DNA from: Antedon mediterranea
Lineage: Eukaryota > Animalia > Echinodermata
Reading direction: 5' to 3'
DNA length: 64,000 nt
NCBI RefSeq assembly: GCF_964355755.1
Contig: NC_092677.1
Coordinates: forward strand, 4,362,101 to 4,426,100
The notes beneath the pieces were generated by a model that saw nothing but the letters and a program-made list of their open reading frames with translations, did not search any database and was not told where the DNA came from. Below, one piece after another: positions 9,499 through 57,393 of this stretch. Position 1 is the first letter of the stretch; each line of letters starts with the position of its first letter. The position numbers were made by a program, and so were the translations under genes.

Positions 9499-12400
9499 AT
9501 GGCTCAAGAAGAGGACTCTGTACTTGGAATAAGTCGAAAGTTCGGAGAAAACACTTCTTCACATGGTATACCACGGATAGTAGCGTCAAAATCGTATTTT
9601 GGAAAGATCTTCTGGAGTTGTTTGTATGTTGCTTCTCTAGAAGCGTTCACTTGGCAGGCCTATGTTCTCATCGATACATACTTCAAGTTTGAAGTTTCTA
9701 TCAAAGTAAGTCGAATTCAAAAGGTGTATAGTTTAACTTCACTCAAGGGCTATACATACAAAATCGAGGTTTACACTTTTGTACATTTAAAGCTCTGTCT
9801 GCACCATCAATTTTTGTGAAAAAAAAATTTGATGTGCCCATGTATAGACACGATGATGTCATATCCCTACCATAGTGGACACATCACATTATTTTGGTTG
9901 TCTAAGTAGTTTGATAGTGTAGACAGAGCCCAAGGAACTGCATTCATACGGCCCTTTTGTGGTCAATTGAATAATGACCCGATATTCCTTTATAATAGGC
10001 CTATAGTAACTTCTACATTTAGGCCTAACATCAAATTCATACATTTGCAGGGCTTTAACAGTAACGTTTGACTTATTTCCATTTTTGTAGAACTGAAATA
10101 GCAATTCTTTATAAAAGATTAAATCAAATTATTAATTACGCAAATTTATATTAGAAAAGAAATGAATTTCTTGAAGTATTTCTTGTTTTGATTTTATTCG
10201 TTCAGTAATTAATTAATAAAACGAATATTTCTTGCTTTGCTTTTATTTATTTTTGTCAGTACGTCGTTGAAAACTCAGACGCCAGACCCTTGCAATTTCC
10301 CGCCGTTACCTTGTGCAATACAAATCAAGTTCGCCGGTCTGTTTTGGCGTTACGTCATGAGTATGAGATACTATCGTCCATTGAAAACTACACAAATCAT
10401 TTACAATATTACGGTAAAACATTTTTTATTAGTATTTTGCGTCAATGTTTTGTTTTGTCAGCTCTGTCTTTATGGGACAAAAAAAAAGTGATGTGTCCAT
10501 ATATGGACCCGATGATGTCATATCAGTACCATCACACTTTTTTTTACACAAACTAGTTTGATAGTTTCTTTATTTTTTTATACCATATTTAATGAGGGTG
10601 ATCCATCCAGCAATTGCTGATCATTAAGGGCCCTCAGAGGTTCACAAGACAAACATATAGGCCTACACAAGATGCTCTACATAAACAAAGTCTTTATTAC
10701 AAGTCTTTGGGAATGGAGTCCTTAGAAAAATCCTGACATGTGACAGGACTTGAACTCAGGAACCTTGGAGTGGTAGCCAAGTATCATAACCACCAAGCCA
10801 CAACTCCACTCCACTCTCTAGTGTAGACAGAGCTTAACGTTTAATATATCATATATCAACGTGATAATAGTTTCTTCGATGGACTTCTCAAAACTTTGAA
10901 AAGAAGTGCTTTTGTAGGTCAGATCAGTGTCTACATTCAATTCTATCAATACTATTTCACACTTCCAAATGGCCCTGTTCCATTTTACCATTAAGGACCT
11001 AATAATTGTTTAGTCAGAGCGAATACATCTCTATGGTAAGACTTTTTTTCCCAAACCTAACGCTTTATCTTTGCTTCTCTATCTGAAAAAAAAAACATCA
11101 ATGGGTGTATGTAGGCCTAAATATGTATTCACATTTGTTTCTGCAGCTCCGTGTAAGGCTGGAGATTTTCATTGCGACAACAACAAGTGTGTTAAAGATT
11201 ACAGGGTGTGCAACGGTATTGATGATTGTGGTGATAAGTCAGATGAACAAAACTACTGTCTACCTGAAGGTAAGTATTGGAATTTTTATCCACCCGTAAA
11301 ATGATGGAACGCACGAGTATTATTGATAATTTAGTAATAATTTTTAACACCGCCATTGCTGTCTTTCTGTGATTGCGCTAGTTACAATCCGTTATGCATG
11401 AGTAATTATTAGTGAATGACGTAATGCATAAAGTGTAAGATTGTATTCGTGGTCCACTGCGAATTCCGGTAAATGCGTCTTGCTTTTAAAAAGACAGTGT
11501 GTCTAAATAAAGTACGACGAATGTATTTAGCTGAATATCATTGTTTTGTACTTGTCGTCAGAAAAGAGTATTGACCGACATAATATTTCATTACTAATCA
11601 TTATTATATTTATTTAGCATTATTTCCGTGTCGAACTGGGTACAAGCGGTGTCAAATTGGAGGAGAATCCGGTTATTGTATTAGCGAAGACAGATGGTGT
11701 GATAGAAATGTAGATTGTTACGACGGAGAAGACGAAGTTTGTACAGCGAATGACAGTGAGTAACATTAAAAAAATTAAATTACCCAACTTCCTTAACATA
11801 TTACTCCTTAAAATCAGAATAACAATGGAATATATATTAGGAAGAAGTATAAAATCATTGTATTTATCATTTCAAAATGAAATGAATAAAAGTAGTGGTT
11901 AATGCCATTAAAAACCATTTCTTACCGTACGAGGTATTGTGCATGCGCACTAAATCCTGGTGGTGAATTGCCGCATCTCCCATTGTCGGACTTGCGCGAA
12001 GAAATAATGTAATTTGTATACAGTTGTAAATAAAGATGATTTTCATTATTATAATTTATACCAATGTATATTTAATTAAGCTAATATAAATATAGATATT
12101 TCATTCTTCAATATCTGGCCAATATAACAACTCAATGACTGTTACGTTTTTTATAAACATCGTTTAAAAACCATTTAGTCGACCATTTAGTCTGCCCCCT
12201 CCAGGACTAAAAAAATCTATCAAAATCCGTCTCGATTTAGTCGAGGTTGGCCTGATTTAGTCGGTAATTTAGTTGAAGTTCGGTTTATGAATTAAAATGA
12301 CGTCATTTTTTTAGTTTTAGCTCGAACTACGACTAAAGTCCGGTTTAAGAATACGGGCGATAAACTATTCGCGCATGCATACTTATCAACCATCTATTAA

Positions 12401-15400
12401 AATCACGCCTATAGTCATAGCCCAAAGTATGAGTTGGACTAGAATTACTATCAAAATTGAAAAGTTCCCATGCGCTGGATTATGCGAATTCATTATCATG
12501 TTTTGCGATCTACGATAAGAGTTCATAACATTTACGCGAATATATTCGATTAGTTAAAAGCAAACTTTATGCATTTATTTCAGTTAAGTGCAAGGACGAT
12601 GAATTTTCATGTAAAAGCGGGGTAGAGGCGTCTTTTGAAACTGAATTTGTTGAAAAATATGGGACTAAGTATTGCATTAGTGACAATCTAAAATGTGATG
12701 GTATTAAACATTGTGCGAATTATGCTGACGAAGCAAATTGTCCAGGTGATGTAATAAAATGTTGTCTTGGTAATTTGAGTATGTTCAAAATATCGATATT
12801 TATTAATAGCGATAGCGCTTTTGTATACAAGCACCAAAACCATAGCCATACAATCTAAACGCTCTACTTTACATTTTTGGTAGGCCTATTAATGTTATGC
12901 ATCCTCAAAATATCCAAGGACCTGCTTGTATAGGAAGAATGGTTCTTGGGACAGGAGGTGTAAGTGGTAGGCCTAGATAAAATGTCACTGTCAATCTAGT
13001 ACAAATTGATACTCGTTGTTTTTGTAGCAGGACAATGTAATGAGAAGGAAGAATTTACATGTGGAGATATCATTTGCATCCCGAATGATTATAAGTGCGA
13101 CGGGTTTTGTGACTGCGCAGACTGCAGGGACGAGTCTTCAGACATAGTTTGTGTATTTACGTGCACGAATGGTAAACAAATACCAAAAGAGGAAACGTGC
13201 GATTATAAAAACCAATGTGGTGATAACAGTGATGAAGAAGGATGTACAGAATTTCAAAGTAGGCCTACAGTTATTTTAATTTTAATTCATTGATCAATAT
13301 CAATAATTGTCACCGACGCATTTCTAACGAATAGGCCTACACACAATTTCAAATATTTTCCATAAAGAATAATCTTCAATTGCTTTGATGGTTTAAGTTA
13401 GCCTACTTAAGTAATATTTGTTTTCAAATAAATTACAAAGTATAAAATTAAAGTAACGACTTTTAAGAAGAATGTCTTTCTCTTTACAGGTTGCACTGAA
13501 GAGTCTGAATTCCAGTGTGATAATAAGCAGTGTATTGTCAAGGCTAACCTTTGTAACGATATAGAAGACTGTTATGATTATAGCGATGAACGTTCATGTA
13601 GGTTATTTATAATCTGTTAGCATGTGTGTCCTAGGACTGTGTTTAGCATGTAAAGACAAAAATGTTTGTTTTAGTGCTATATAGGCCTACTCTCAACATT
13701 ATGCTTCATTTAATTTTAGGTAATTGCTCAAGATTTCTTTGTAATAACAAGAAATGTGTTAACATTTACGCTGATTGTAACGGATTAGACGAATGCGGCG
13801 ATGGCTCTGATGAAATGTTTTGTAATGAAAAAAGTGAGTGTAGACGTGTTTTTAAACAACCTTGGTCTTTAAACTTGTCCCTAAACGGCCCTAATCTAAC
13901 TCGGCTCTAAACCAACTCGCTCCGAGTAAACTAAACCCCAATAAACTAATCAGTCAACACGTTCCCAATAAAGTGACTAACAAGTCTATTCGGCAGTTGT
14001 GACAACGTGTTTGATAAATGATGCAGATAAGACAGATTTAAGTTAATATGCCTATATTTGTTATTTTATGTAATTAGTATTGTTTTTTTATATAGGAATT
14101 CCTTATCAAACACACGATCCTTCAAATTGGACAGATGACTGGTATTTCCAATACGCAGACAAATTAGACATAGGTTCTGATACATATGTGCTTGAGAAAG
14201 CAGTAACATTATTTAAGGAATACTTCAAAGATTGGGGCTTTGAGAGAGTTTCAGGAGAGTTTCCACCAGACTGGATTAGATTCCTTGTCTTCAGTAGTAC
14301 GGCAGACTATAGCGACCTACAGAATGTTCTAAAACTTACCGAAGAAGAATTATTGGAACTAGGACATCAGGCTCAGCAGATGATTTTACAGTGTACTTAT
14401 GCTGGTACGAAGTGTGATATTGAAAAGTACGTGAAAATGGTTTGACAGTTTTATTAATGATAACACCTACAGTAGTGTTTGTTAATATAAAACAAATATA
14501 AACAAATCCTCAAATTATTTCTGTTTATGTTTTATTTTTCATCTCTCAATTTAGAATATATAACATATCATTTAAATGGAAAGTATGACCAAAATAGCAA
14601 AGCAACTACTGTAGATGCCTACAGGAAAAATCGGAAACAAAAATAGAAGTGGGAATAGACCGTCCTTACCTGCACACGTTTTTTTTTCATTCAGTTAGGT
14701 GTCACAAATGAATTTAAGCTTATTTGATTTCAGGGATTTTCACTTATTTCAACATGACAAATACGGTAACTGCTACACATTTAACAGTCATAAGAAGGAA
14801 AATGCGACAAAACACGATGTATCACAACCAGGTGCCGAAAAAGGTAAGTTGGTAACCGATTGTAAGAATCCTAAAAAAGATTTGAGTAAGAGCCGAAGTA
14901 TTTCAAAATACAAACTAACATAGCATTATTCGATTCGTAGTTTGAATCTCTTTTCACCCATTTACGTTTTGGTAATAAAGGTTTAAAGCTAACGCTGTAC
15001 ACAGAACAACATGAATATGTTAGTGTCTTCGGACAAGAGAGTGGCATCAAAGTGTCGGTGCATAATCAGTTTGAAACACCGTTTCCAGAAGAAAATGCCA
15101 TTACCGTCTCACCAGGCAGAGCTACTTCATTAGGCATAAAAAAGGTAAACATCATCTTTCTCATCATTGACCGATGTTTTCTTCATGTCATGAAGAAGCT
15201 CTTGATTTTTGACGACATTTGACATATGTACTTGCTTTGCTTCGTTGATTGCTGCAAAGTATTGGCACGCGCACAATCAATTAACATGGCTGCTACAGTC
15301 CTATGTTTTTGCATAGAGATATTACACTATAATATCTCTATGGTTTTTGATAGCTCTATCAGTTTAGTTTAGTTTAGATGGGTAAGTTTAGGCGAGGTGT

Positions 15401-17750
15401 ACCTTTTTAATCCCATTTGTACAACGGTCGAATCCAATCGTTTTTTCACGATCGTTATAATCAAAACTTATATTCTGAAATTTAGACAATTTTTTATTTG
15501 CAGCACGAACTGATTCGGAAAGGCCAGCCGTATGGTAACTGCACAAGTGAAAATGCAACCGTGAAGAACTTGATTTACAAGGGAGACACAGTGTACACAG
15601 CTACTGTAAATAACAATGATGTCATTCATGTTTATTTTACTCCATGAATTGATTTAAAAATTGAAAGGTTTCCATGTATTGTCTGTTTGGACATTGGTCT
15701 GTATTCAAATTATTCCTAATCAGCAGATCCAAGTTAAAAATATAAATATTATCATCATTATCATATAATTGCTGTAATGGTAGGTCTACGTCTTACCTAT
15801 TTAGTATCTATTAACCCAATCATTATTTTCATTTCTTATTTTCAATAGGCTTGCCAAAAATCGTGTTTACAACTAAAGTTACTAGAAGTTTGCGACTGTG
15901 TGGACACATTGCGTTATGATGGTTCCCAGCGTTGCCAACTACTGGATCTTGAACAAGGCTAGTTTAACCAAATGAACACACAACATTAGCAAACATTGAA
16001 GCCACTGCTAGCGCGAACAAAATATTCTTTCTTTAATTCTTTTCGTAATTTTTATTCAGCCAAAATAAATATTTAACATCAGTAGGCTATACTACAAAAA
16101 GTGATTTTACTGATTAAGCGAAAACTCAAGGGACTATAATTCGCAGATGTGGACAATGAAAATACGAATACACATGTACATAGGCTAAACCAGCCTAGCT
16201 TTACTTACTAAGATCTATTCACTCATTTTAGAAGTACATTATTTGTACCTTTAAACTGAGTGAATAGATCTTGTGAGTAAAGCTAAAAGCTAAACATTTG
16301 CATATACCTATATCATTGCAACATTATTTCTAAAAGCTCAACATATTCCATTAGTACGCATCACAACATTAATATAAGGCGTACAACATACTGGATTCAA
16401 TTTACCCGTAATTGCAGTGAAATATTATATTTCTAAAGCCTATACTTTTTTTTACCAATTAGAACGTTGCCGCCAATTTGTGAATTTTCTTCATTCTCAA
16501 TATTTAATAAAATGTGATTGTCCAGTTGCTTGTCGGTAAGTTAATGTATCTTTCTAAAACTGAAACTAAATTCGTCTCTTTACTGGACTGGTAACATGTA
16601 TGGTGAATTATTGTGTTAAGTTGTAACAAATTAAACAAAACCATTGTATTGGTGGAAAGTCATTTGACTATTATGTTGTGACGTCTTCTTGTAGCAAAAG
16701 AATAATTTCTATTTTTTTGTTTTTAGTGAAATTACATATGAAAAGACCGTATCACAATCACTTTGGCCTTCTGATAGATATGTGGTAAGTTTGCTGGTAC
16801 GGTGAAGGAACTGAGAACTCGTGCCAAGCATTTAATAATATAAGATTATAACATTACGAATGGACTATACTTAATAAACTGATTTCGAAATAAGTTACAA
16901 TAACATTTTTGATCTTCCAGAAAACTTTGCTTGACAGTATTTACGTCCTTGAGGCAAGATACAGTGAACATTTATACGATCTCGAAACAGCACAGTAAGT
17001 AGCATGTTTCAAAAAGAGGCAATGTTTTCGCGCCAATAGAAAGCGTCAGCTTATACGCATGCGTAGAGAACGATTTTTAAAGATGGAGACATGAAATACG
17101 CATGACGCTTTCGATTTGTGTGAACAAATTCGCCTAATGGAAATCGGCTTTAGGGCCTACACATTATTAACTGTAATGATCAGATTTGCCAGACGCCTTT
17201 TAAAATTAGAGATATTCAGTCTTCAATGTATAAATTGTATTTGTATAATAACTATTTTTCTATAATTACTTTTGAAATGTGTGTAAACAGAAGAAATCTT
17301 GCTCGTCTGAACGTGTATTATGAGGATCTTTCGTACGTCTCCATATCCGAACTCCCTGCTTATACAGTAAGTATACACAGACACGTCTAGTTAGTATTAC
17401 TTTCAAGGACCTTTTGGACGTCCATAATATCACAAAAAAATCGATCAAAAATTCTGAACCTTTAACTTCAATAATCCTATTGGCCTATTTTGTGAAAAAT
17501 CGAGATTGAGTGAGAAAATTGACCGGGTGATAAAATAATCCGATATTTCAACGTAATGTACTTTATAACCAATTATTCTGAATTTCAGTGGCAAAGCCTC
17601 TTCGGTGACGTAGGAGGAACTCTAGGACTGTATATTGGTCTTTCATTGCTAACTGTTGTCGAATTCTGCGAATTCTTCATTGATATTTTTCTTTATTGTT
17701 GTAACAAAATGATGAAGAGGAACAAAGTACAAAGCATACCGGGCATGTAG
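9499..17750 (+). CDS. DEG/ENaC-family channel subunit with seven extracellular LDLa repeats, copy A (18 exons, about 831 aa, intact)
   Basis: Exons: 9499-9705, 10260-10413, 11147-11269, 11618-11755, 12584-12745, 13028-13258, 13490-13597, 13720-13833, 14096-14426, 14734-14843, 14981-15144, 15504-15605, 15849-15957, 16463-16535, 16727-16784, 16921-16994, 17291-17366, 17589-17750. Total 2496 nt with consistent phases. Motifs: TSSHGIPRI (HG), TM1, [31 protein letters not shown], Cys-rich thumb CQKSC..CDC..CDCPVAC, WPS, and TM2 [21 protein letters not shown] (GxS filter). Confidence 0.93.
9791..9930. mobile_element. About 140-bp MITE (PIF/Harbinger-like) in intron 1 of A; copy at about 40602-40741 in A'
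   Basis: Inverted ends AGCTCTGTCTGCACCATCAA / TTGATAGTGTAGACAGAGCC, flanked by TAA and CAA. Absent from intron 1 of B and C. A second family member lies at 10460-10834. Confidence 0.7.
10460..10834. mobile_element. Second MITE of the AGCTCTGTCT...AGACAGAGCT family, interrupted by a SINE
   Basis: Same termini and the same internal GATGATGTCATATC core as 9791-9930. Split at TGATAGT|GTAGAC by the insertion at 10566-10818. Confidence 0.65.
10566..10818 (-). mobile_element. tRNA-derived SINE; copy at 41358-41626 in A'
   Basis: The minus strand has an A box TGGCTTGGTGG and a B box GAGTTCAAGTCC (GGGTTCAAGTCC in A') at tRNA-like spacing. A non-tRNA body and an A-rich tail follow. A short TAGT repeat flanks both ends. 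Confidence 0.75.
11960..12359. mobile_element. About 400-bp insertion in intron 4 of A only; probable truncated MITE fragment
   Basis: Absent from A' (aatcctg-tcagac-ataaac at about 42779-42797), where 6 bp are present instead. Contains repeated TTTAGTC/GACTAAA motifs. The right end GGTTTAAGAATACGGGC looks like a TIR with no left partner. Confidence 0.6.
15312..15342. mobile_element. 31-bp palindromic micro-element with a 7-bp TSD (P-superfamily-like termini)
   Basis: CATAGAGATATTA-cacta-TAATATCTCTATG flanked by GTTTTTG at 15305-15311 and 15343-15349. A' has the empty site (ctatGTTTTTGatagc, about 45735-45750). Confidence 0.8.
16196..16285. repeat. About 90-bp fold-back palindrome (mini-MITE-like) in intron 13 of A, B, A' and B'
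   Basis: TAGCTTTACTTAC(T)AAGATCTATTCACTCA...TGAGTGAATAGATCTTGTGAGTAAAGCTA, pairing almost up to a 5-nt loop. Copies at about 25803-25891, 46621-46709 and 56221-56309. Not present in C. Confidence 0.8.
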
Positions 17751-19739: not shown

Positions 19740-22700
19740 ATGGCTCAAGAAGAAGAGGAAACTGTACTTGGAATAAGTCGAAATTTCGGAGAAAACACTT
19801 CTTCACATGGTATACCACGGATAGTAGCGTCAAAATCGTATTTTGGAAAGATCTTCTGGAGTTGTTTGTATGTTGCTTCTCTAGTGGCGTTCTCTTGGCA
19901 GGCCTATGTCCTCATCGATACATACTTCAAGTTTGAAGTTTCTATCAAAGTAAGTTAAGAACGTATCTATCATTTAATTTTACAAAGAAAATTTAAGAAA
20001 ACAAGCTTACTGATGGCTACACAAATCATTCCAATCAAAGAATGTTTATATTTTTATAACTAATTTAGAAATCACATCCACACGGCCAATCGTAGACTTT
20101 TCGATGTTTGTCTGAAATAAAAGCTCAAGTAGTATACGTATGAAACGCCATATGTGCCAAAATATTAATCTTTTTACTAATAATTAAGTCAAAAGGCCTC
20201 GTTAAAAGTGATTAGGAATTAAATTGTAACTTTTGACTTACAGTATTTCCATTTTTGTTTAAACTAATATAGCAATTACCGAAAATTAGGCATAATGAAA
20301 ATAATAATTATATTATAAAAAATTAATAAAACGAATATTTCTTGCTTTGCTTTTATTTATTTTTGTCAGTACGTCGTTGAAAACTCAGACGCCAGACCCT
20401 TGCAATTTCCCGCCGTTACCTTATGCAATACGAATCAAGTTCGCCGGTCTGTTTTGGCGTTACGTCATGAGTATGAGATACTATCGTCCATTGAAGACTA
20501 CACAAATGGTTTACTGTATTATGGTAAAATATTTTGCGTCAATATAATATTTATTCCATGTTTTTTTTGCCCAACTAACGTTTACTATCTTAGATGGATC
20601 CCATCCAGATCACTTATTATAGACAATGAAAAAAAAACTGCTTTTGTAGGTTTTTTATCAGTGTCTATATTCAATTCTATCAATACTAGTTCACACTTTC
20701 ATATGACCCCTTTCCCTGCTACCTTTAAGGACCTAATAACTTATTTCAAATTCATCCCATAAAAAGAGCATGAGCGAATGCATCATCCCTAATGGATAAG
20801 ACTTCTTTTCTTCACATTAAAGTATATTTTTGTCTTAAATGTTTCTGCAGCTCCGTGCAAGGCTGGAGATTTTCATTGTGAGAACAATAAGTGTGTTAAA
20901 GGCTACAGAGTGTGCAACGGTATTGATGATTGTGGTGATAAGTCAGATGAACAAGACTGTCAATCTGGTAAGTATTGGAATCTTTATCAACCCGTAAAAT
21001 AATGGAACGCGTGAGTATTATATTTTAAAATTTAGTAATAATTATCTTCTGTGATGGCGCTAGTTACACTCCGTTATGCGTGAGTAATTATGAATGACAT
21101 AATGCGCGCATAAAGCATGTCATAACAGACGTTAGCGGTTTTCTGTTATACAGTCGTACGACAGCCACGTCGTTTTCAGTCGCGTGGACGCGACTCTATA
21201 GTTCACTATGTCGGTCGGTCGGTATGTCTGTCGGTCCGGTATCACTATGCATTGTAGCACGCGACTTAATGGCTGTTGGCCTTGTTGAGTAACAATCTAC
21301 TCGATCGGTTTCCTGTAAAAACTAACTTTCTTACAATAAATCGTCGTAGTCGTAACAAAACTGGTGTTCTTACGTAGAGAAGAAACCAGGCTTAAACGGG
21401 CATATAGGAAGTTAAGATTGTTTTCGATTTAATCCATTGCGAATTCAGGTAAATGCGTCATGCTTGGTAAAAGACAATGTGTACGACGAATGCATTTAGC
21501 TGAGTATCGTTGTTTTCTGCTTTTGTCAGAAGAGTATAGACCAACATAATATTCCATTACTAATCATTATTATATTTATTTTGCATAAATATTATACATT
21601 TTATTATATACAGTTCCGTGTCGATCTGGGTATAAGAGGTGTCAAATGGGAGGAGATTTCGGCTATTGTATTAGCGAAGACAGATGGTGTGACAGAAATA
21701 TAGATTGTTACGATGGAGAAGACGAAGATTGTTCAGCGAATGACAGTGAGTAACATTAAGTTGAAGAAAATTAAATTAGGCCTACCCAACTTAATTAACA
21801 TATTCGTCCTTAAAATCAGAATAACAATAGAATATATATTAGGAAGAAGTATAAAAATCATTGTATTGATCATTTGAAAATGAAATGAATAAAAGTAGCG
21901 GTTAAGGCCACAAAAGAGAGAAAAAAAAACATTCATTACCGTACGAAGTATTTTGAGGAAAACAACTTGTGCATGCGCACTAATCTTGTCAGACATACAA
22001 TACTCGCACATGTGTACTAATCAGCCACATTTTAAAGTCACGCCCATAGTCATAGCCCAAAGTATGAGTTGAAAAGTTTCCATGCAGCGGCAAATTGGAC
22101 TTGGAAGCCCGTTTTTTTTTTTCATATTTTTTCATCTACGATAAGATTTCATGAAATGTGCGCGAATATATTCGATTAGTTAAAAAACAGAAGACTTTAT
22201 GCATTTATTTCAGTTAAGTGCAAGGACGATGAATTTTCATGTAAAAGCGGAGTAGAGACGTCTTTTGAAACTGCCTATGTTGAAAAATATGGGACTAAGT
22301 ATTGCATTAGTGCCAAGCTAAAATGTGATGGTATTAAACACTGTGAGAATAATGCTGATGAAGCAAATTGTCCAGGTGATGTAATAAAGTTTTTTCTTGG
22401 TAATTTGTGTATGTTTAAAGTAGCGGTATTTATTTTCATATTAATAGCGCTTTTGTATAAATGCACCGAAAGCAAACCATAGCCATACAATCCATACTAC
22501 TTTACATTTAATGTATGCCTCCTCAACATAACCCAGGACCTCCTTGTATGGGAAAAAAAGTTCTTGGGACAGAGGTGTAAGTAGTAGGCCTAAATTAACA
22601 TGTCACTGTCAATCTAGTACAAATTGATACTCGTTGTTTTGTAGCTGGGAAATGTAATGAGACTGACTTTTCATGCGGAGATGGCTTTTGCATCCCGAAT

Positions 22701-30284: not shown

Positions 30285-30564
30285 CTCTGTCCATTCTGTA
30301 GGCTACCTAGCCCTGTCTCTGTCCATTCTGTAGGCTACCTAGCCCTGTCTCTGTCCATTCTGTAGGCTACCTAGCCCTGTCTCTGTCCATTCTGTAGGCT
30401 ACCTAGCCCTGTTTCTGTCCATTCTGTAGGCTACCTAGCCCTGTCTCTGTCCATTCTGTAGGCTACCTAGCCCTGTCTCTGTCCATTCTGTAGGCTACCT
30501 AGCCCTGTCTCTGTCCATTCTGTAGGCTACCTAGCCCTGTCTCTGTCCATTCTGTAGGCTACCT
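30285..30564 (+). repeat. 32-bp minisatellite, 8.75 copies, in intron 2 of C
   Basis: Unit CTCTGTCCATTCTGTAGGCTACCTAGCCCTGT repeated head-to-tail from 30285; the ninth, partial unit starts at 30541. One substitution near 30413. No spacers. Confidence 0.97.
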
Positions 30565-43300: not shown

Positions 43301-46300
43301 TTACATTTTTGGTAGGCCTATTAATGTTATGCATCCTCAAAATATCCAAGGACCTGCTTGTATAGGAAGAATGGTTCTTGGGACAGGAGGTGTAAGTGGT
43401 AGGCCTAGATAAAATGTCACTGTCAATCTAGTACAAATTGATACTCGTTGTTTTTGTAGCAGGACAATGTAATGAGAAGGAAGAATTTACATGTGGAGAT
43501 ATCATTTGCATCCCGAATGATTATAAGTGCGACGGGTTTTGTGACTGCGCAGACTGCAGGGACGAGTCTTCAGACATAGTTTGTGTATTTACGTGCACGA
43601 ATGGTAAACAAATACTAAAAGAGGAAACGTGCGATTATAAAAACCAATGTGGTGATAACAGTGATGAAGAAGGATGTACAGAATTTCAAAGTAGGCCTAC
43701 AGTTATTTTAATTTTAATTCATTGATCAATATCAATAATTGTCACCGACTCATTTCTAACCAATAGGCCTACACACAATTTCAAATATTTTCTATAAAGA
43801 ATAATCTTCAATTGCTTTGATGGTTTAAGTTAGCCTACTTAAGTAATATTTGTTTTCAAATAAATTACAAAGTATAAAATTAAAGTAACAACTTTTAAGA
43901 AGAATGTCTTTCTCTTTACAGGTTGCACTGAAGAGTCTGAATTCCAGTGTGATAATAAGCAGTGTATTGTCAAGGCTAACCTTTGTAACGATATAGAAGA
44001 CTGTTATGATTATAGCGATGAACGTTCATGTAGGTTATTTATAATCTGTTAGCCTGTGTGTCCTAGGACTGTGTTTAGCATGTAAAGACAAAAAATGTTT
44101 GTTTTAGTGCTATATAGGCCTACTCTCAACATTATGCTTCATTTAATTTTAGGTAATTGCTCAAGATTTCTTTGTAATAACAAGAAATGTGTTAACATTT
44201 ACGCTGATTGTAACGGATTAGACGAATGCGGCGATGGCTCTGATGAAATGTTTTGTAATGAAAAAAGTGAGTGTAGACGTGTTTTTAAACAACTTTGGTC
44301 TTTAAACTTGTCCCTAAACGGCCCTAATCTAACTCGGCTCTAAACCAACTCGCTCCGAGTAAACTAAACCTCAATAAACTAATCAGTCAACACGTTCCCA
44401 ATAAAGTGACTAACAAGTCTATTCGGCAGTTGTGACAACGTGTTTGATAAATGATGCAGATAAGACAGATTTAAGTTAATATGCCTATATTTGTTATTTT
44501 ATGTAATTAGTATTGTTTTTTTATATAGGAATTCTTTATCAAACACACGATCCTTCAAATTGGACAGATGACTGGTATTTCCAATACGCAGACAAATTAG
44601 ACATAGGTTCTGATACATATGTGCTTGAGACAGCAGTAAAATTATTTAAGGAATACTTCAAAGATTGGGGCTTTGAGAGAGTTTCAGGAGAGTTTCCACC
44701 AGACTGGATTAGATTCCTTGTCTTCAGTAGCACGGCAGACTATAGCGACCTACAGAATGTTCTAAAACTTACCGAAGAAGAATTATTGGAACTAGGACAT
44801 CAGGCTCAGCAGATGATTTTACAGTGTACTTATGCTGGTACGAAGTGTGATATTGAAAAGTACGTGAAAATGGATTTACAGTTTTATTAATGATAACACC
44901 TACAGTAGTGTTTGTTAATATAAAACAAATATAAACAAATCCTCAAATTATTTCTGTTTATGTTTTGTTTTTCATCTCTCAATTTAGAATATATAACATA
45001 TCATTTAAATGGAAAGTATGACCAAAATAGCAAAGCAACTACTGTAGATGCCTACAGGAAAAATCGGAAACAAAAATAGAAGTGGGAATAGACAGTCCTT
45101 ACCTGCACACGTTTTTTTTTTCATTCAGTTAGGTGTCACAAATGAATTTAAGCTTATTTGATTTCAGGGATTTTCACTTATTTCAACATGACAAATACGG
45201 TAACTGCTACACATTTAACAGTCATAAGAAGGAAAATGCAACAAAACACGATGTATCACAACCAGGTGCCGAAAAAGGTAAGTTGGTAACCGATTATAAG
45301 AATCCTAAAAAAGATTTGAGAAAGAGCCGAAGTATTTCAAAATACAAACTAACATAGCATTATTCGATTCGTAGTTTGAATCTTTTTTCACCTATTTACG
45401 TTTTGGTAATAAAGGTTTAAAGCTAACGCTGTACACAGAACAACATGAATATGTTAGTGTCTTCGGACAAGAGAGTGGCATCAAAGTGTCGGTGCATAAT
45501 CAGTTTGAAACACCGTTTCCAGAAGAAAATGCCATTACCGTCTCACCAGGCAGAGCTACTTCATTAGGCATAAAAAAGGTAAACATCATCTTTCTCATCA
45601 TTGACCGATGTTTTCTTCATGTCATGAAGAAGCTCTTGATTTTTGACGACATTTGACATATGTACTTGCTTTGCTTCGTTGATTGCTGCAAAGTATTGGC
45701 ACGCGCACAATCAATTAACATGGCTGCTACAGTCCTATGTTTTTGATAGCTCTATCAGTTTAGTTTAGTTTAGATGGGTAAGTTTAGGCGAGGTGTACCT
45801 TTTTAATCCCATTTGTACAACGGTCGAATCCAGTCGTTTTTTTCACGATCGTTATAATCAAAACTTATATTCTGAAATTTAGACAATTTTTTATTTGCAG
45901 CACGAACTGATTCGGAAAGGCCAGCCGTATGGTAACTGCACAAGTGAAAATGCAACCGTGAAGAACTTGATTTACAAGGGAGACACAGTGTACACAGCTA
46001 CTGTAAATAACAATGATGTCATTCATGTTTATTTTACTCCATGAATTGATTTAAAAATTGAAAGGTTTCCATGTATTGTCTGTTTGTACATTGGTCTGTA
46101 TTCAAATTATTCCTAATCAGCAGATCCAAGTTAAAAATATAAATATTATCATCATTATCATATAATTGCTTTAATGGTAGGTCTACGTCATGATCAATTC
46201 TTACCTATTTAGTATCTATTAACCCAATCATTATTTTCATTTTTTATTTTCAATAGGCTTGCCAAAAATCGTGTTTACAACTAAAGTTACTAGAAGTTTG

Positions 46301-48165
46301 CGACTGTGTGGACACATTGCGTTATGATGGTTCCCAGCGTTGCCAACTACTGGATCTTGAACAAGGCTAGTTTAACCAAATGAACACACAACATTAGCAA
46401 ACATTGAAGCCACTGCTAGCGCGAACAAAATATTCTTTCTTTAATTCTTTTCGTAATTTTTATCCATTCATTCATTATTTATAGCCAAAATAAATATTTA
46501 ACATCAGTAGGCTATACTACAAAAAGTGATTTTACTGATTAAGCGAAAACTCAAGGGACTATAATTCGCAGATGTGGACAATGAAAATACGAATACACAT
46601 GTACATAGGCTAAACCAGCCTACCTTTACTTACAAGATCTATTAACTCATTTTAGAAGTACATTATTTGTACCTTTAAACTGAGTGAATAGATCTTGTGA
46701 GTAAAGCTAAACATTTGCATATACCTATATCATTGCAACATTATTTCTAAAAGCTCAACATATTCCATTAGTACGCATCACAACATTAATATAAGGCGTA
46801 CAACATACTGGATTCAATTTACCCGCAATTGCAGTGAAATATTATATTTCTAAAGCCTACACTTTTTTTTACCAATTAGAACGTTGCCGCCAATTTGTGA
46901 ATTTTCTTCATTCTCAATATTTAATAAAATGTGATTGTCCAGTTGCTTGTCGGTAAGTTAATGTATCTTTCTAAAACTGAAACTAAATTCGCTTCTTGAC
47001 TGGACTGGTAACATGTATGGTGAATTATTGTGTTAAGTTGTAACAAATTAAACAAAACCATTGTATTGGTGGAAAGTCATGGACTATTATGTTGTGACGT
47101 CTTCTTGTAGCAAAAGAATAATTTCTATTTTTTTTGTTTTTAGTGAAATTACATATGAAAAGACCGTATCACAATCACTTTGGCCTTCTGATAGATATGT
47201 GGTAAGTTTGCTGGTACGGTGAAGGAACTGAGAACTCGTGCCAAGGATTTAATAATATAAGATTATAACATTATTACGAATGGACTAGTATACCTAATAA
47301 ACTGATTTCGAAATAAGTTAGGCCTACAATAACATTTTTAATCTTCCAGAAAACTTTGCTTGACAGTATTTACGTCCTTGAGGCAAGATACAGTGAACAT
47401 TTATACGATCTCGAAACGGCCCAGTAAGTAGCATGTTTCAAAAAGAGGCAATGTTTTCGCGCCAATAGAAAGCGTCAGCTTATACGCATGCGTAGAGAAC
47501 GATTTTAAAGATGGAAACATGAATACGCATGACGCTTTCGATTCGTGTGAACAAATTCGCCTAATGGAAATCGGCTTTACACATTATTAACTGTAATGAT
47601 CAGATTTGCCAGACGCCTTTTAAAATTAGAGATATTCAGTCTTCAATGTATAAATTGTATTTGTATAATAACTATTTTTCTATAATTACTTTTGAAATAT
47701 GTGTAAACAGAAGAAATCTTGCTCGTCTGAACGTGTATTATGAGGATCTTTCGTACGTCTCCATATCCAAACTCCCTGCTTATACAGTAAGTACAGTAAT
47801 ACTAGTTAGTATTCCTTTCGAGGACCTTTTGGACGTCCATAATATCACAAAAAAATCGATCAAAAATTCTGAACCTTTAACTTCAATCATCCTATAGGCC
47901 TATTTTGTGAAAAATCGTGATTGAGTGAGAAAATTGACCCGGTGATAAAATAATCCGATATTTCAACGTAATTTACTTTATAACCAATTTTTCTGAATTT
48001 CAGTGGCAAAGCCTCTTCGGTGACGTAGGAGGAACTCTAGGGCTGTATATTGGTCTTTCATTGCTAACTGTTGTCGAATTCTGCGAATTCTTCATTGATA
48101 TTCTTCTTTATTGTTGTAACAAAATGGTGAAGAGGAACAAAGTACAAAGCATACCGGGCATGTAG
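40310..48165 (+). CDS. LDLa-DEG/ENaC channel subunit, copy A' (18 exons, intact)
   Basis: Exons: 40310-40516, 41071-41224, 41953-42075, 42430(or 42424)-42561, 43016-43177, 43460-43690, 43922-44029, 44153-44266, 44529-44859, 45168-45277, 45415-45578, 45901-46002, 46257-46365, 46880-46952, 47144-47201, 47350-47423, 47711-47786, 48004-48165. Lengths and phases match A, with a few substitutions. Confidence 0.92.
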
Positions 48166-50156: not shown

Positions 50157-53100
50157 ATGGCTCAAGAAGAAGAGGAAACTGTACTTGGAATAAGTCGAAA
50201 TTTCGGAGAAAACACTTCTTCACATGGTATACCACGGATAGTAGCGTCAAAATCGTATTTTGGAAAGATCTTCTGGAGTTGTTTGTATGTTGCTTCTCTA
50301 GTGGCGTTCTCTTGGCAGGCCTATGTCCTCATCGATACATACTTCAAGTTTGAAGTTTCTATCAAAGTAAGTTAAGAACGTATCTATCATTTAATTTTAC
50401 AAAGAAAATTTAAGAAAACAAGCTTACTGATGGCTACACAAATCATTCCAATCAAAGAATGTTTATATTTTTATAACTAATTTAGAAATCACATCCACAC
50501 GGCCAATCGTAGACTTTTCGATGTTTGTCTGAAATAAAAGCTCAAGTAGTATACGTATGAAACGCCATATGTGCCAAAATATTAATCTTTTTACTAATAA
50601 TTAAGTCAAAAGGCCTCGTTAAAAGTGATTAGGAATTAAATTGTAACTTTTGACTTACAGTATTTCCATTTTTGTTTAAACTAATATAGCAATTACCGAA
50701 AATTAGGCATAATGAAAATAATAATTATATTATAAAAAATTAATAAAACGAATATTTCTTGCTTTGCTTTTATTTATTTTTGTCAGTACGTCGTTGAAAA
50801 CTCAGACGCCAGACCCTTGCAATTTCCCGCCGTTACCTTATGCAATACGAATCAAGTTCGCCGGTCCATTTTGGCGTTACGTCATGAGTATGAGATACTA
50901 TCGTCCATTGAAGACTACACAAATGGTTTACTGTATTATGGTAAAATATTTTGCGTCAATATAATATTTATTCCATGTTTTTTTTGCCCAACTAACGTTT
51001 ACTATCTTAGATGGATACCATCGAGATCACTTATTATAGACAATGGAAAAAAACTGCTTTTGTAGGTTTTTTATCAGTGTCTTTGTTCAATTCTATCAAT
51101 ACTAGTTCACACTTTCATATGACCCCTTTCCCTGCTACCTTTAAGGACCTAATAACTTATTTCAAATTCATCCCATAAAAAGAGCATGAGCGAATGCATC
51201 ATCCCTAATGGATAAGACTTCTTTTCTTCACATTAAAGTATATTTTTGTCTTAAATGTTTCTGCAGCTCCGTGCAAGGCTGGAGATTTTAATTGTGAGAA
51301 CAATAAGTGTGTTAAAGGCTACAGAGTGTGCAACGGTATTGATGATTGTGGTGATAAGTCAGATGAACAAGACTGTCAATCTGGTAAGTATTGGAATCTT
51401 TATCAACCCGTAAAATAATGGAACGCGTGAGTATTATATTTTAAAATTTAGTAATAATTATCTTCTGTGATGGCGCTAGTTACACTCCGTTATGCGTGAG
51501 TAATTATGAATGACATAATGCGCGCATAAAGCATGTCATAACAGACGTTAGCGGTTTTCTGTTATACAGTCGTACGACAGCCACGTCGTTTTCAGTCGCG
51601 TGGACGCGACTCTATAGTTCACTATGTCGGTCGGTCGGTATGTCTGTCGGTCCGGTATCACTATGCATTGTAGCACGCGACTTAATGGCTGTTGGCCTTG
51701 TTGAGTAACAATCTACTCGATCGGTTTCCTGTAAAAACTAACTTTCTTACAATAAATCGTCGTAGTCGTAACAAAACTGGTGTTCTTACGTAGAGAAGAA
51801 ACCAGGCTTAAACGGGCATATAGGAAGTTAAGATTATTTTCGATTTAATCCATTGCGAATTCAGGTAAATGCGTCATGCTTGGTAAAAGACAATGTGTAC
51901 GACGAATGCATTTAGCTGAGTATCGTTGTTTTCTGCTTTTGTCAGAAGAGTATAGACCAACATAATATTCCATTACTAATCATTATTATATTTATTTTGC
52001 ATAAATATTATACATTTTATTATATACAGTTCCGTGTCGATCTGGGTATAAGAGGTGTCAAATGGGAGGAGATTTCGGCTATTGTATTAGCGAAGACAGA
52101 TGGTGTGACAGAAATATAGATTGTTACGATGGAGAAGACGAAGATTGTTCAGCGAATGACAGTGAGTAACATTAAGTTGAAGAAAATTAAATTAGGCCTA
52201 CCCAACTTAATTAACATATTCGTCCTTAAAATCAGAATAACAATAGAATATATATTAGGAAGAAGTATAAAAATCATTGTATTGATCATTTGAAAATGAA
52301 ATGAATAAAAGTAGCGGTTAAGGCCACAAAAGAGAGAAAAAAAAAACATTCATTACCGTACGAAGTATTTTGAGGAAAACAACTTGTGCATGCGCACTAA
52401 TCTTGTCAGACATACAATACTCGCACATGTGTACTAATCAGCCACATTTTAAAGTCACGCCCATAGTCATAGCCCAAAGTATGAGTTGAAAAGTTTCCAT
52501 GCAGCGGCAAATTGGACTTGGAAGCCCGTTTTTTTTTTTCATATTTTTTCATCTACGATAAGAGTTCATGAAATGTGCGCGAATATATTCGATTAGTTAA
52601 AAAACAGAAGACTTTATGCATTTATTTCAGTTAAGTGCAAGGACGATGAATTTTCATGTAAAAGCGGAGTAGAGACGTCTTTTGAAACTGCCTATGTTGA
52701 AAAATATGGGACTAAGTATTGCATTAGTGCCAAGCTAAAATGTGATGGTATTAAACACTGTGAGAATAATGCTGATGAAGCAAATTGTCCAGGTGATGTA
52801 ATAAAGTTTTTTCTTGGTAATTTGTGTATGTTTAAAGTAGCGGTATTTATTTTCATATTAATAGCGCTTTTGTATAAATGCACCGAAAGCAAACCATAGC
52901 CATACAATCCATACTACTTTACATTTAATGTATGCCTCCTCAACATAACCCAGGACCTCCTTGTATGGGAAAAAAAGTTCTTGGGACAGAGGTGTAAGTA
53001 GTAGGCCTAAATTAACATGTCACTGTCAATCTAGTACAAATTGATACTCGTTGTTTTGTAGCTGGGAAATGTAATGAGACTGACTTTTCATGCGGAGATG

Positions 53101-56100
53101 GCTTTTGCATCCCGAATGAGTATAAGTGCGACGGGTTTTGCGACTGCACAACAGACTGCAGGGACGAGTCTTCAGACATAGTTTGTGCATTTACGTGCAC
53201 GAATGGTAAACAAATTCAACAAGAGGAAAGGTGTGATTATAAAAACCAATGCGGTGATAACAGTGATGAAGAAGGATGTACAGAATTTCATAGTACAGTT
53301 ATTTTAATTTTTGTCAAAACATTTATTTACTGACTGTGAAAAAAAAAACACACAATAATAAATTGATTTAGACCTACGACTAATTCTTTGATCAATATCA
53401 ATAATTGTCACCGGCGCATTTCTAACGAATAAGCCTACACACAATTTCAAATATTTTCCAGAAAGAATAATCTTTAATTGCTTTAGTAGGTTTAAGTTAG
53501 CCTACTTAAGTAATATTTGTTTTCACATAAATTACAAAGTATAAAATTAAAGTAACGACTTTTAAGAAGTGTTATTTTCTTTCTCTCTACAGGTTGCACT
53601 GGATTTCAGTGTGATAATAAGCAGTGTATTGACAAGGCTTACATTTGTAACGATATAGAAGACTGTTATGATTATAGTGATGAACGTTCATGTAAGTTAT
53701 TTTTAATCTGTTAGCCTGTGTGTCCTATGACTGTGTTAAACATGTAATGACAAATGTGTTTGTTTCATTTATTTTTTCTCAACATTATGCTTCATTTGGT
53801 TTTAGGTAATTGCTCAAGATTTCCTTGTAATAACGATAAATGTGTTAACATCTACGCTGATTGTAACGGATTAGACGAATGCGGGGATGGCTCTGATGAA
53901 ATGTTTTGTAATGACACAGGTGACTGTAGAAGTGTTTCTAAACAAATTTGGTAATCAAACTCCTCCCTCAACAGCCCTAATCTAACTGGGCTCTAAACCA
54001 ACTCGGCCCAAGTAGTTTCAGCCCCGTAAGTCCATCTTCAAATCAACTCGTCTCAAGTCAACTCAACTCCAAGTTAGAGTGGCCCCATTACCCAATCAGT
54101 CAACTAGTTCCTAATAAAGTAACAGTAACAATACTGTTTGAAGCAAACTATTAAACACTATTCAACAGTTGTGACAACGTGTTGAATCACAGCGTTGACA
54201 AATGATGCAGATAAGATAGATTTAAGTTAATATGCCTATGTTTATTATGTTATGTAATTAGTATTGTTTTTTTATAGGAAGTAATTATCAAACACACGAT
54301 CCTTCAAATTGGACAGATGACTGGTATTTCCAATACGCAGACAAATTAGACATAAGTTCTGATACGTTTCTGCTTGAGACAGCAGTAAAATTATTTAAGG
54401 AGTACTTTAAAGATTGGGGATTTGAGAGAGTTTCAGGAGAGTTTCCACCTGACTGGATTAGATTCCTTTTCTTCAGTAGCACGGCAGACTACAGCGATCT
54501 ACAGAATGTTCTAAAACTTACCCAAGAGGAATTATCGGAACTAGGACATCAGGCTCACCAGATGATTTTACAGTGTGTTTATGCTGGTACGAAGTGTGAT
54601 ATTGAAAAGTACGTGAAAATGGTTTGACAGTTTTATTTAGGATAATATTAAATAGTTAATATAAAACAAATCCTAAATTATCTCTGTTTCTGTTTTATTT
54701 TCCATCTTTCAAGTTAGAATCATTTAAATGAAAAGTATGACCAAAATAGCAAAGCAACTACTGTAGATGCCCACAGGAAAAATCGGAAACAAAAATGGAA
54801 GTGGGAATAGACCGTCCTTACCTGCACACGTTTTTTTTTTCATTCAGTTAGGTGTCACAAATTAATTTAAGCTTATTTGGTTTCAGGGATTTTCACCTAT
54901 TTCAACATGACAAATACGGTAACTGCTACACATTTAACAGTCATAAGAAGGAAAATGCGACAAAATACGATGTATCACAACCAGGTGCCGAAAAAGGTAA
55001 GTTGGTAACCGATTGTAAGAATCCAAACACAGATTTGAGAAAGATCCGAAGTATTTCAAAATATAAACAAACATAGCATTATATTCGATTCGTAATTTGA
55101 ATATCTTTTTACCTATATTTACATTTTGTTAATCAAGGTTTAAAGCTAACGCTGTACACAGAACAACATGAGTACGTTAGTATCTTTGGACAAGAGAGTG
55201 GCATCAAAGTGTCGGTGCATAATCAGTTTGAAACACCGTTTCCAGAAGAAAATGCCATTACCGTCTCACCAGGCAGAGCTACGTCATTAGGCATAAAAAA
55301 GGTAAACGTCAATGCAATCATTTTTCTTATCATTGAGAGATGTTTTCAATGCAATTGATGAAGAAGCTCTTTGACATGATCTACGCTTGCTTTGCTTCGT
55401 TGGTTGCAAAGTAACTAGTTCCTTATGTCTTAGGTTTTTGAAAATCAATAGTTCCCCATATCACGATCGTTTTAATCGAAACGTATATTCTGAAATGTAT
55501 ACAATGTTTTATTTGCAGCACGAACTGATTCGGAAAGGCCAGCCGTATGGTAACTGTACAAGTGAAAATGCAACAGTGAAGAACTTTATTTACAAGGGAG
55601 ACACAGTGTACACAGCTACTGTAAATAACAATGATGTCATTCATGTTTATTTTACTCCATGAATTGATTTAAAAATTGAAAGGTTTCCATGTATTGTCTG
55701 TTTGGACATTGCTCTGTATTCAAATTATTCCTAATCAGCAGATCCATGTTAAAAATATAAATATTATCATCATTATCATATAATTGCTGTAATGGTAGGT
55801 CTACGTCATGATCAATTCTTTCCTATTTAGTATCTATTAACCCAATCATTATTTCATTTTTTATCTTCTATAGGCTTGCCAAAAATCGTGTTTACAACTA
55901 AAGTTACTAGAAGTTTGCGACTGTGTGGACACATTGCGTTATAATGGTTCCCAGCGTTGCCAACTACTGGATCTTGAACAAGGCTAGTTTAACCAAATGA
56001 ACACACAACATTAGCAAACATTGAAGCCACTGCTGCCGCGAACAAAATATTCTTTCTTTAATTCTTTTCGTAATTTTTATTCAGCCAAAATAAATATTTA

Positions 56101-57393
56101 ACATGTAGGCTATACTACAAAAAGTGATTTTACTGATTAAGCGAAAACTCAAGGGACAATAATTCGCAGATGTGGACAATGAAAATACGAATACACATAT
56201 GTACATAGGCTAAACCAGCCTAGCTTTACTTACAAGATCTATTCACTCATTTTAGAAGTACATTATTTGTACCTTTAAACTGAGTGAATAGATCTTGTGA
56301 GTAAAGCTAAAAGCTAAACATTTGCATAGACCTATATCATTGCAACATTATTTCTAAAAGCTCAACATATTCCATTAGTACGCATCACAACATTAATATA
56401 AGGCGTACAACATACTGGATTCAATTTACCCGTAATTGCAGTGAAATATTATATTTCTAAAGCCTATACTTTTTTTTACCAATTAGAACGTTGCCGCCAA
56501 TTTGTGAATTTTCTTCATTCTCAATATTTAATAAAATGTGATTGTCCAGTTGCTTGTCGGTAAGTTAATGTATCTTTCTAAAACTGAAACTAAATTCGCT
56601 TCTTGACTGGACTGGTAACATGTATGGTAAATTATTGTGTTAAGTTATAACAAATTAAACAAAACCATTGTATTGGTGGAAAGTCATGGACTATTATGTT
56701 GTGACGTCTTCTTGTAACAAAAGAATAATTTCTATTTTTTTGTTTTTAGTGAAATTACATATGAAAAGACCGTATCACAATCACTTTGGCCTTCTGATAG
56801 ATATGTGGTAAGTTTGCTGGTACGGTGAAGGAACTGAGAACTCGTGCCAAGGATTTAATAATAATTATAAGATTATAACATTACAAATAATAATAATAAT
56901 ATTTATTCGGCAAAAGTTCATGTGTGTAAACAGAAGAAATCTTGCTCGTCTGAACGTGTATTATGAGGATCTTTCGTACGTCTCCATATCCGAACTCCCT
57001 GCTTATACAGTAAGTATACACAGACACGTCTAGTTAGTGTTACTTTCAAGGACCTTTTGGAAGTCAATAATATCACAAAAAAATCGATCAAAAATTCCGA
57101 ACCTTTAACTTCAATCATCCTATATGCCTATTTTGTGAAAAATCGAGATTGAGTGAGAAAATTGACCCGGTGATAAAATAATCCGATATTTCAACGTAAT
57201 TTACTTTATAACCAATTTTTCTGAATTTCAGTGGCAAAGCCTCTTCGGTGACGTAGGAGGAACTCTAGGGCTGTATATTGGTCTTTCATTGCTAACTGTT
57301 GTCGAATTCTGCGAATTCTTCATTGATATTCTTCTTTATTGTTGTAACAAAATGATGAAGAGGAACAAAGTACAAAGTATACCGGGCATGTAG
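50157..57393 (+). pseudogene. LDLa-DEG/ENaC copy B', lacking exon 16 (probable pseudogene)
   Basis: Nearly identical to B from the ATG at 50157 to exon 15. The 74-bp exon 16 and about 410 bp around it are replaced by about 35 bp of filler (56885-56919). Joining exon 15 (phase 0) to exon 17 (56934) shifts the frame and reaches TGA before TM2. Exon 18 ends at 57393. Confidence 0.85.

Follow-up and report, generated by a model that had tools for sequence, protein, structure and literature searches.

We analyzed a 64,000-nt stretch of the feather star Antedon mediterranea genome (contig NC_092677.1, positions 4,362,101-4,426,100, forward strand; hereafter the window) and find that it carries a tandem array of genes for DEG/ENaC channel subunits in which seven LDL-receptor class A (LDLa) modules form a cassette within the finger region of the channel ectodomain. 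These genes represent a real, conserved variant of DEG/ENaC channels, and their interest lies in a family-wide plug-in cassette at the gating site. We tentatively propose that the finger cassette gives these feather-star subunits their own tether or recognition arm, in mechanical contact with the gate through module 1, a reading whose chances we put somewhat short of even.

Motif scans identified five full-span gene copies, all on the plus strand. The HG motif that precedes transmembrane segment 1 (TM1) and the FPAVTxCN motif that follows it were found in all five, and a 10-residue post-TM1 motif and a 14-residue TM2 motif each occur once per copy. An earlier note on this DNA had read 18 exons as one continuous frame running from the HG motif and TM1 to TM2. 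All seven motifs that it quoted are present in the window, and splicing copy 1 in silico indeed joins 18 exons into a single open frame of 831 amino acids followed by a stop codon. All 17 introns of copy 1 end in AG and 16 begin with GT; the donor of intron 13 is GC in all five copies (position 15958 in copy 1 and the matching site in copies 2-5), and the RefSeq Antedon model P0001 splices at the same GC junction. A Pfam scan covering 16 of the 18 copy 1 exons matched ASC (PF00858) in exons 1, 2, 10, 11, 13, 17 and 18, with three of these matches below the cut-off, and Ldl_recept_a (PF00057) above the cut-off in exons 3-8, where two separate stretches in exon 6 bring the count to seven modules. 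The cassette contains 42 cysteines: five modules have six each, and modules 4 and 5 are atypical, with eight and four. It is acidic overall (77 Asp+Glu vs 36 Lys+Arg), and all of its exons are phase 1-1, the usual pattern of exon shuffling. The thumb cysteines that are invariant in our alignment and the Gly-Leu-Ser (G-L-S) filter of TM2 are intact in copies 1, 2 and 4 only.

The same architecture recurs in other genomes. Searching with exon 9 returned, at 94% identity, the RefSeq A. mediterranea model P0001, which begins at module 6. When this model was the query, 14 of 45 matches, from crinoids, one brittle star and three acorn worms, carried both ASC and LDLa, the pairing for which the earlier note had proposed a Pfam architecture search. 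Another crinoid, Anneissia japonica, has a full orthologue, P0004, with the same seven modules, the same pair of modules with eight and four cysteines, and the same insert in module 3. It reads across the exon 2-3 junction, with 54% identity in the cassette and 57-62% elsewhere. A profile search among proteins of 990-2825 amino acids gave 37 matches. Acorn worms account for 34 of them, all with ASC plus LDLa; the remaining three (P0078, P0080 and P0081) are amphioxus (Branchiostoma) channels that lack LDLa and have inserts of 730-1050 amino acids containing kringle and F5/8 modules (two also Link). From the best 150 representative matches we picked 40 for a domain scan, by length or by a match spanning the cassette, and 26 of these carry ASC and LDLa. 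Of twenty matches taken for naming (one was left nameless), the ambulacrarian ones belong to acorn worms, sea stars, one crinoid and one brittle star, and the others to two snails (Plakobranchus and Biomphalaria), an acoel (Symsagittifera) and a lobster (Panulirus). In these acoel, lobster and snail channels LDLa lies in the same finger region. Further modules found at this site among relatives are CUB, PAN, kringle, F5/8, TSP1, SRCR, ShK, HYR and Link, all of them folds of the adhesion, lectin or protein-binding kind.

Domain order and junction sequence are the same in models of crinoids, sea stars and acorn worms, each taken from its own genome. Database entries with ASC and Ldl_recept_a include XP_071958809.1 (Antedon mediterranea), XP_022096860.1 (Acanthaster planci), XP_077866593.1 (Saccoglossus kowalevskii) and P0004. 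The suspicion voiced in the earlier note, that similar fusions already exist among predicted marine-invertebrate proteins, was correct: they are present in RefSeq and UniRef under automatic names. Three members (P0097, P0096 and P0147) are labelled 'LRP2-like' or 'LRP1B-like', and are thereby hidden from channel surveys. The diversity of the family lies between members across species, above all in acorn worms. Five acorn-worm LDLa channels (P0052, P0062, P0065, P0066 and P0076) have 340-680 residues ahead of the HG motif, with an FN3 match at 30-110 in one of them; these N-terminal stretches may be either true cytoplasmic extensions or fused gene models.

A structure model of P0004, built with a 58-row alignment (predicted local distance difference test score 82.5, predicted template-modeling score 0.76), has helices at residues 40-69 and 787-828 flanking a large ectodomain. 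In this model P0004 folds as a DEG/ENaC channel, matching ENaC beta with Z 31.1 (root-mean-square deviation 3.3 over 351 residues) and ASIC1 with Z 29.3. Modules 1-2 and 7 are modeled confidently, and modules 4-5 are not. Sequence scores give 177.6 bits for ENaC gamma, 175.5 for ENaC beta, 156 for Aplysia FaNaC and 154 for ASIC1; in the structure atlas, the nearest model is a 995-amino acid nematode cluster with a template-modeling score of 0.55. Spliced joints, the orthologue, dozens of relatives and this DEG/ENaC fold together place the modules within the finger of one protein, as originally claimed.

The position of the cassette can be approached from its flanks: it directly follows the first finger helix and precedes the re-entry into the conserved finger-palm. 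On the first side, exon 2 shows a weak match to the strand and first finger helix in both ASIC and ENaC; on the other, the last part of exon 9 matches residues 229-257 of ENaC beta, again weakly. The GRIP domain of ENaC, with its polybasic cleavage sites, occupies the interval from helix alpha1 to helix alpha2; it wedges finger and thumb, and gating is under its control (PMC6197857, available text). From the flanking alignments and the model, we infer that the cassette fills the interval of the ENaC GRIP region, between alpha1 and alpha2. We do not equate the tryptophan of the PPDW segment in exon 9 with the alpha2 tryptophan of ENaC, since the intervening segment is unaligned to ENaC.

Across the family, the insertion site is nearly invariant while its content is not. 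Our collection of 228 sequences includes 191 with a channel core and 150 with both flanks, and 63 of these 150 have 1-15 LDLa modules between the flanks (isoforms and two window copies counted). LDLa falls outside the flanks in one case only, a two-gene fused model. The first module starts 16-31 residues past the N-terminal block in 60 of 63 sequences, the last module ends 95-135 residues ahead of the GNCYTFN motif in 41 of 59, and the cassette between them ranges from ~120 to ~1,180 amino acids. We compared individual modules among 38 ambulacrarian proteins, treating as distant those with core identity under 50%. When a first module was compared with a distant relative, its best match was again the first module 1066 times out of 1276, against an expectation of 254; module 1 is thus an inherited anchor, and the middle of the cassette is exchangeable. 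Last-to-last best matches were weaker (401 of 1276). Overall, the cassette is swapped within the family, with both ends fixed. A neighboring clade from acorn worms, sea urchins and Antedon (P0019-P0021 and P0024-P0028) has module-free, low-complexity fingers rich in Ser, Gly and acidic residues at the same site, some of them with basic tracts.

We built phylogenetic trees on channel cores with the cassette removed, with no named vertebrate ENaC among the rows. A FastTree of 172 rows, after dropping 19 isoforms and near-copies, contains a 72-row branch with support 99, in which 62 rows carry LDLa, nine are fragments lacking the N-terminal part, and one has PAN instead. A more careful tree of 40 chosen rows unites 12 ambulacrarian LDLa channels at 99/98; a phylogeny of the LDLa-stripped sequence is what the earlier note had called for. 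In the same tree, three snail-type LDLa channels (two of them named) fall in a separate 100/100 branch together with module-free channels, and the FastTree branch uniting ambulacrarian, acoel, lobster and amphioxus channels is not firm. A single pure clade of all LDLa-bearing channels, a group defined after inspection of a tree, is rejected (approximately unbiased test, p 6e-6), so either LDLa entered the site more than once or it was repeatedly lost. As judged from these core trees, LDLa marks a well-supported echinoderm-hemichordate clade.

Sequencing runs containing this stretch number five, none of them recorded as RNA. Transcript evidence comes chiefly from one of these, run X1, a single low-depth study whose RNA nature is guessed, with contigs aligned to exons 2-11 of copy 2. 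These contigs contain 11 joints, three of them intronic and eight exon-exon, and the latter cover seven of nine junctions (3-4, 4-5, 6-7, 7-8, 8-9, 9-10 and 10-11). Six of the eight exon-exon joints have GT..AG at the predicted boundaries; the other two carry 7-9 letters of a sister copy. The earlier note had looked to RNA across the exon 2-3 and 8-9 junctions: the exon 8-9 joint, which connects LDLa module 7 to the channel core, is present in two contigs (depths 3.4 and 6.15), and the exon 2-3 joint is not listed. None of the 11 joints skips the cassette. One contig is joined at 6-7 but retains intron 7, consistent with partly spliced RNA, and on copy 1 an X1 contig begins exactly at the exon 18 acceptor. 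In four runs aligned to copy 1, intronic repeats dominate, and the 15 joints listed of 178 include no exact exon-exon joint, so that this alignment is no clean DNA control. We regard the existence of a protein with this channel and LDLa architecture as very likely.

The modules themselves bear on what the cassette might bind. The earlier note described LDLa modules as Ca2+-dependent binders of basic ligands, a description that the window modules weaken. The terminal Asp-Glu pair of the Ca2+ cage is kept in all seven modules, and both upstream aspartates are present in two of the seven, being otherwise replaced by Asn, His, Gln or Glu; Ca2+ binding by the modules is putative. The basic-ligand motif of LDLR-type modules, known from work on LDLR and RAP, consists of an aromatic residue two before the fourth cysteine plus two aspartates, a pattern visible in the LRP2 rows of our alignment. 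It is complete in only one of seven modules in each of copy 1 (module 4), copy 2 and P0004. Family-wide, the complete motif occurs in 51 of 381 modules from 74 channels (13%), compared with 166 of 424 modules from 13 LRP-like proteins (39%), and the family's first modules have Leu at the aromatic position in 29 of 48 cases. We also sought the furin-type pattern R-x-K/R-R in the copy 1 ectodomain and found none; a pattern search between the flanks of 37 long relatives likewise found none in 27. The last 60 residues of copy 1 contain no PPxY (PY motif).

Feature coordinates are collected in Table 1. That the window holds a tandem family is true in that there are five full-span copies, but only copies 1, 2 and 4 are intact; copies 3 and 5, and a partial sixth copy (copy 0), are broken. 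The first stop in copy 3 falls at codon 220, and the deletion in copy 5 takes out exon 16 and breaks the frame ahead of TM2, so neither frame reaches TM2. In copy 0, a ~5.9-kb insertion follows exon 15, a fragment of exon 16 resumes at 6226, and exons 17-18 are missing; copy 0 differs from copy 3 by this insertion and a deletion. The array as a whole consists of two near-identical units ~30.8 kb apart, with three sequence types. Substitution levels of 0.6-1.1% suit either a recent duplication or uncollapsed haplotypes, though copy 0 and copy 3 differ as just described; the array is probably an ordinary case of duplication in the recent past followed by decay.

Selection within the array is conservative. 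The LDLa exons of copies 1, 2 and 3 give ratios of nonsynonymous to synonymous substitution (dN/dS) of 0.29-0.43, and the higher divergence of these exons between copies is paralleled by synonymous sites and introns; the LDLa exons of the tandem copies are thus under purifying selection. We rejected a diversifying repertoire within the array on the basis of these values. The earlier idea of a sensory or recognition repertoire is not supported by them, nor by the presence of just three sequence types in two near-identical units with half of the six copies broken. Together, the dN/dS values, the matched divergence of synonymous sites and introns, and the mostly incomplete basic-ligand motif argue against both an array-based ligand repertoire and simple LDLR-like binding.

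Table 1. Gene copies and copy 1 exons in the window (positions count from the first letter of the window).
Feature	Position	Strand	Description
Copy 0	18..6280	+	Broken sixth copy, copy-3 type; exon 14 at 18-90; exon 15 at 233-291, one extra base
Copy 1	9499..17750	+	Intact; 18 exons, 831 amino acids; DEG/ENaC subunit with seven LDLa modules
Copy 1 exon 1	9499..9705	+	HG motif and TM1; ASC E-value 2e-8
Copy 1 exon 2	10260..10413	+	FPAVTLCN strand, first finger helix; phase 1 end
Copy 1 exon 3	11147..11269	+	LDLa module 1, the family's conserved anchor module; Pfam E-value 7e-11
Copy 1 exon 4	11618..11755	+	LDLa module 2 (Pfam)
Copy 1 exon 5	12584..12745	+	LDLa module 3; ~15-amino acid insert, shared with the Anneissia orthologue
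Copy 1 exon 6	13028..13258	+	LDLa modules 4 and 5 (8 and 4 Cys)
Copy 1 exon 7	13490..13597	+	LDLa module 6 (Pfam)
Copy 1 exon 8	13720..13833	+	LDLa module 7 (Pfam)
Copy 1 exon 9	14096..14426	+	Clade-specific ~60-amino acid cap, PPDW / DYSDL segment, re-entry into conserved finger-palm
Copy 1 exons 10-18	14734..17750	+	Palm, beta-ball, thumb, knuckle, TM2 with G-L-S filter
Copy 1 exons 10-13	14734-14843, 14981-15144, 15504-15605, 15849-15957	+	
Copy 1 exons 14-18	16463-16535, 16727-16784, 16921-16994, 17291-17366, 17589-17750	+	
Copy 2	19740..27347	+	Intact, 825 amino acids; vs copy 1, 86% identity in the LDLa region and 93-95% elsewhere
Copy 3	29215..36561	+	All 18 exons; exon 4 (31086-31219) with 2 extra bases, frame broken
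Copy 4	40310..48165	+	Intact, 831 amino acids; near-copy of copy 1, 1.1% substitutions
Copy 5	50157..57393	+	Near-copy of copy 2, 0.6% substitutions; ~350-base deletion near 56884-56920

Likeness between the copies is mosaic. The 3' ends of copies 1 and 2 are 96% similar, introns included (15446-19530 vs 25042-29145), and the 5' ends of copies 2 and 3 are 95% similar (19670-20535 vs 29145-30040). Such a pattern suggests unequal crossing over or gene conversion, and it is conversion that seems to have homogenized copies 1 and 2 in their 3' parts. Copy 3 alone has a minisatellite in intron 2, with units of ~32 bases (30282-30564). Two transposable elements accompany the array. A retrotransposon of the type without long terminal repeats lies on the minus strand within intron 15 of copy 0 (1739-5386); its endonuclease, reverse transcriptase and zinc-binding segments are spread over three frames. 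At the far end of the window is a probable DNA transposon (58066-64000), with inverted arms 95% alike (58399-58505 vs 63894-64000) and two long minus-strand frames without a Pfam match (58699-61890, 1064 amino acids; 61924-63375, 484 amino acids). Its motifs may correspond to an XPG-like nuclease and a Cys-rich tail like those of Academ elements.

In the reading that we tentatively favor, the cassette is a tether or recognition arm built into the channel. The subunits would form trimeric cation channels, and the cassette would bind large extracellular partners such as matrix, mucus, cell-surface proteins or glycans. Binding or pull would then pass from the cassette to the gate: the conserved module 1 would pack on the channel and couple the cassette to finger and thumb, and the cassette would alter gating, not position only. 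We favor this reading because whatever accompanies or replaces LDLa at the site has a fold used in adhesion, as a lectin or for protein binding, and because an LDLa module of Neto2 acts on gating. The Neto2 LDLa contacts the kainate receptor and is required for its modulation (PMC12618232, available text).

Several points weigh against this reading. The relatives are gene models, not proven proteins, and family members appear only under automatic names with no function on record. The module-free, low-complexity fingers of the sister clade, 150-250 amino acids long, suggest that the site may merely tolerate insertions. In phmmer and PDB sequence searches, the segment between the flanks did not align to ENaC alpha2 or GRIP. 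With the classic basic-ligand motif in one of seven modules only, no partner is indicated. Finally, the X1 joints on copy 2 include neither exon 2-3 nor exon 5-6, coverage of exon 2 is ~1, and X1 also covers introns; as the cassette exons are all phase 1-1, in-frame skipping is possible.

The strongest competitor, which we nonetheless consider unlikely, makes the cassette a built-in auxiliary subunit serving clustering, anchoring or trafficking in the manner of Neto or LEV-10, in a channel gated by protons, sodium or a small peptide, or constitutively open. CUB, LDLa and TSP1 are typical of channel-clustering proteins, and a cassette that varies from about 120 to 1,180 amino acids is hard to fit to one precise gating movement. 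A pure anchor, however, would need neither a fixed site in the gating region nor an orthologous first module.

Following the earlier note, one may picture a ligand-gated receptor in which a basic protein or peptide in solution binds to the LDLa modules, or Ca2+ is sensed by them, and the channel opens in response; we consider this improbable. The incomplete motif (one of seven modules, and 13% of family modules vs 39% of LRP-like ones), the predominance of Leu at the aromatic position of the first module and the lack of a diversifying signal among the tandem copies all speak against this idea, even though the Asp-Glu pair persists in every module and the cassette is acidic. LDLa ligands typically present basic surfaces, and LDLa-rich GRL101 receptors occur in the same animals (PMC8286064, available text), which would also suit such a channel.

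A slightly lower probability still attaches to a GRIP-like autoinhibitory lid, freed or shifted by extracellular proteases that the modules recruit. Its appeal is that extracellular protease cascades make use of LDLa, CUB, kringle and PAN modules, that the cassette would sit where ENaC has its protease-controlled GRIP domain, and that our search for relatives also returned matriptase matches; yet the modules are disulfide-locked, and the furin-type pattern is absent from the copy 1 ectodomain and from between the flanks in 27 of 37 long relatives. Least credible, and in our view very improbable, is that the fusion arose as an artefact of gene modeling, or that the cassette is neutral cargo skipped in mature transcripts, since the phase 1-1 exons, the two unseen junctions, the three broken copies and the RefSeq model starting at module 6 are outweighed by the exon 8-9 joint in two contigs, the order and junctions shared by models from independent crinoid, sea-star and acorn-worm genomes, and dN/dS below 0.5.

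The tether or recognition arm can be extended to a broader proposal, which we hold as possible but doubtful: that these proteins form a new 'receptor-channel' class. In this class the finger would be a plug-in socket with one conserved LDLa anchor, acorn worms and echinoderms would have built up dozens of module combinations, other bilaterians would have arrived at the arrangement more than once, and the binding of matrix, mucus, glycans or proteins would itself gate a sodium channel. The coupling of DEG/ENaC channels to tethers and ligands outside the cell has long been in question, and the known tethers and regulators are separate proteins. With a candidate binding arm inside the pore subunit, at the site of ENaC gating, deletion or swapping of modules would be a direct probe of finger-to-gate coupling. 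Among the invertebrates most closely related to chordates the family is large and, should gating prove to follow binding, the natural exchange of modules shows a route to channels with chosen sensors.

The family is likely undescribed in the literature, though present in databases. Full-text literature searches returned no paper on this architecture, with some of the search wording weak and most subscription journals outside reach. By term look-up, 'LDL' is absent from the main text, as available, of PMC9822975, PMC10507113, PMC8791634, PMC9234716 and PMC4729200. Two supplement files of PMC4729200 contain no ENaC, amiloride or degenerin, and in 11 of the 15 supplement files of PMC10507113 'LDL' occurs only as sequence letters. 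The available text of PMC10507113 mentions uncharacterized ambulacrarian and cephalochordate channels near ENaC with their domains undescribed. One channel survey discarded sequences over 1000 amino acids and poorly aligning segments (PMC9234716, available text), a step by which long family members are easily lost from channel phylogenies.

Among known systems, vertebrate ENaC (SCNN1A/B/G/D; PDB 6wth, 9blr) is the best-matching channel by sequence and by fold (ENaC beta, Z 31.1, within 1 of the other ENaC entries), and there, too, a large insert separates the first finger helix from the return to the palm. Unlike the GRIP beta-sheet with its inhibitory tract, the window insert is an LDLa cassette, and the window protein lacks a furin-type site and a PY motif and has its own 11-residue TM2 sequence. 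ASIC1, FaNaC and nematode degenerins share the HG and FPAVTxCN motifs, the Cys-rich thumb and the TM2 filter, and degenerins have long Cys-rich finger inserts and matrix tethers. None of these channels is known to contain LDLa, CUB or kringle modules, and their tethers and regulators are separate proteins.

On the side of the modules, LRP2, VLDLR and LDLR resemble the window protein in their tandem LDLa on phase 1-1 exons, with a strong sequence match to LRP2. The window protein differs in having no beta-propeller or EGF, in placing its modules in a loop of a two-pass channel, and in the mostly degenerate lysine-binding motif of those modules. In Neto1/2 and LEV-10, LDLa and CUB modules also act on a channel ectodomain, but these are separate single-pass proteins on glutamate or acetylcholine receptors, whereas the window modules lie inside the pore-forming subunit. 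Polycystin-1 and REJ proteins are channel subunits with a modular ectodomain that includes LDLa. GRL101-type G-protein-coupled receptors also have a modular ectodomain including LDLa (PMC8286064, available text). The folds of both groups are unrelated to that of the window protein, and their modules are N-terminal extensions, not insertions within a gating domain. The unnamed ASC plus Ldl_recept_a models in the databases, variously called degenerin-like, LRP2-like or uncharacterized, differ from the window genes in the number and type of their modules, and share with them the architecture, the insertion site and one clade.

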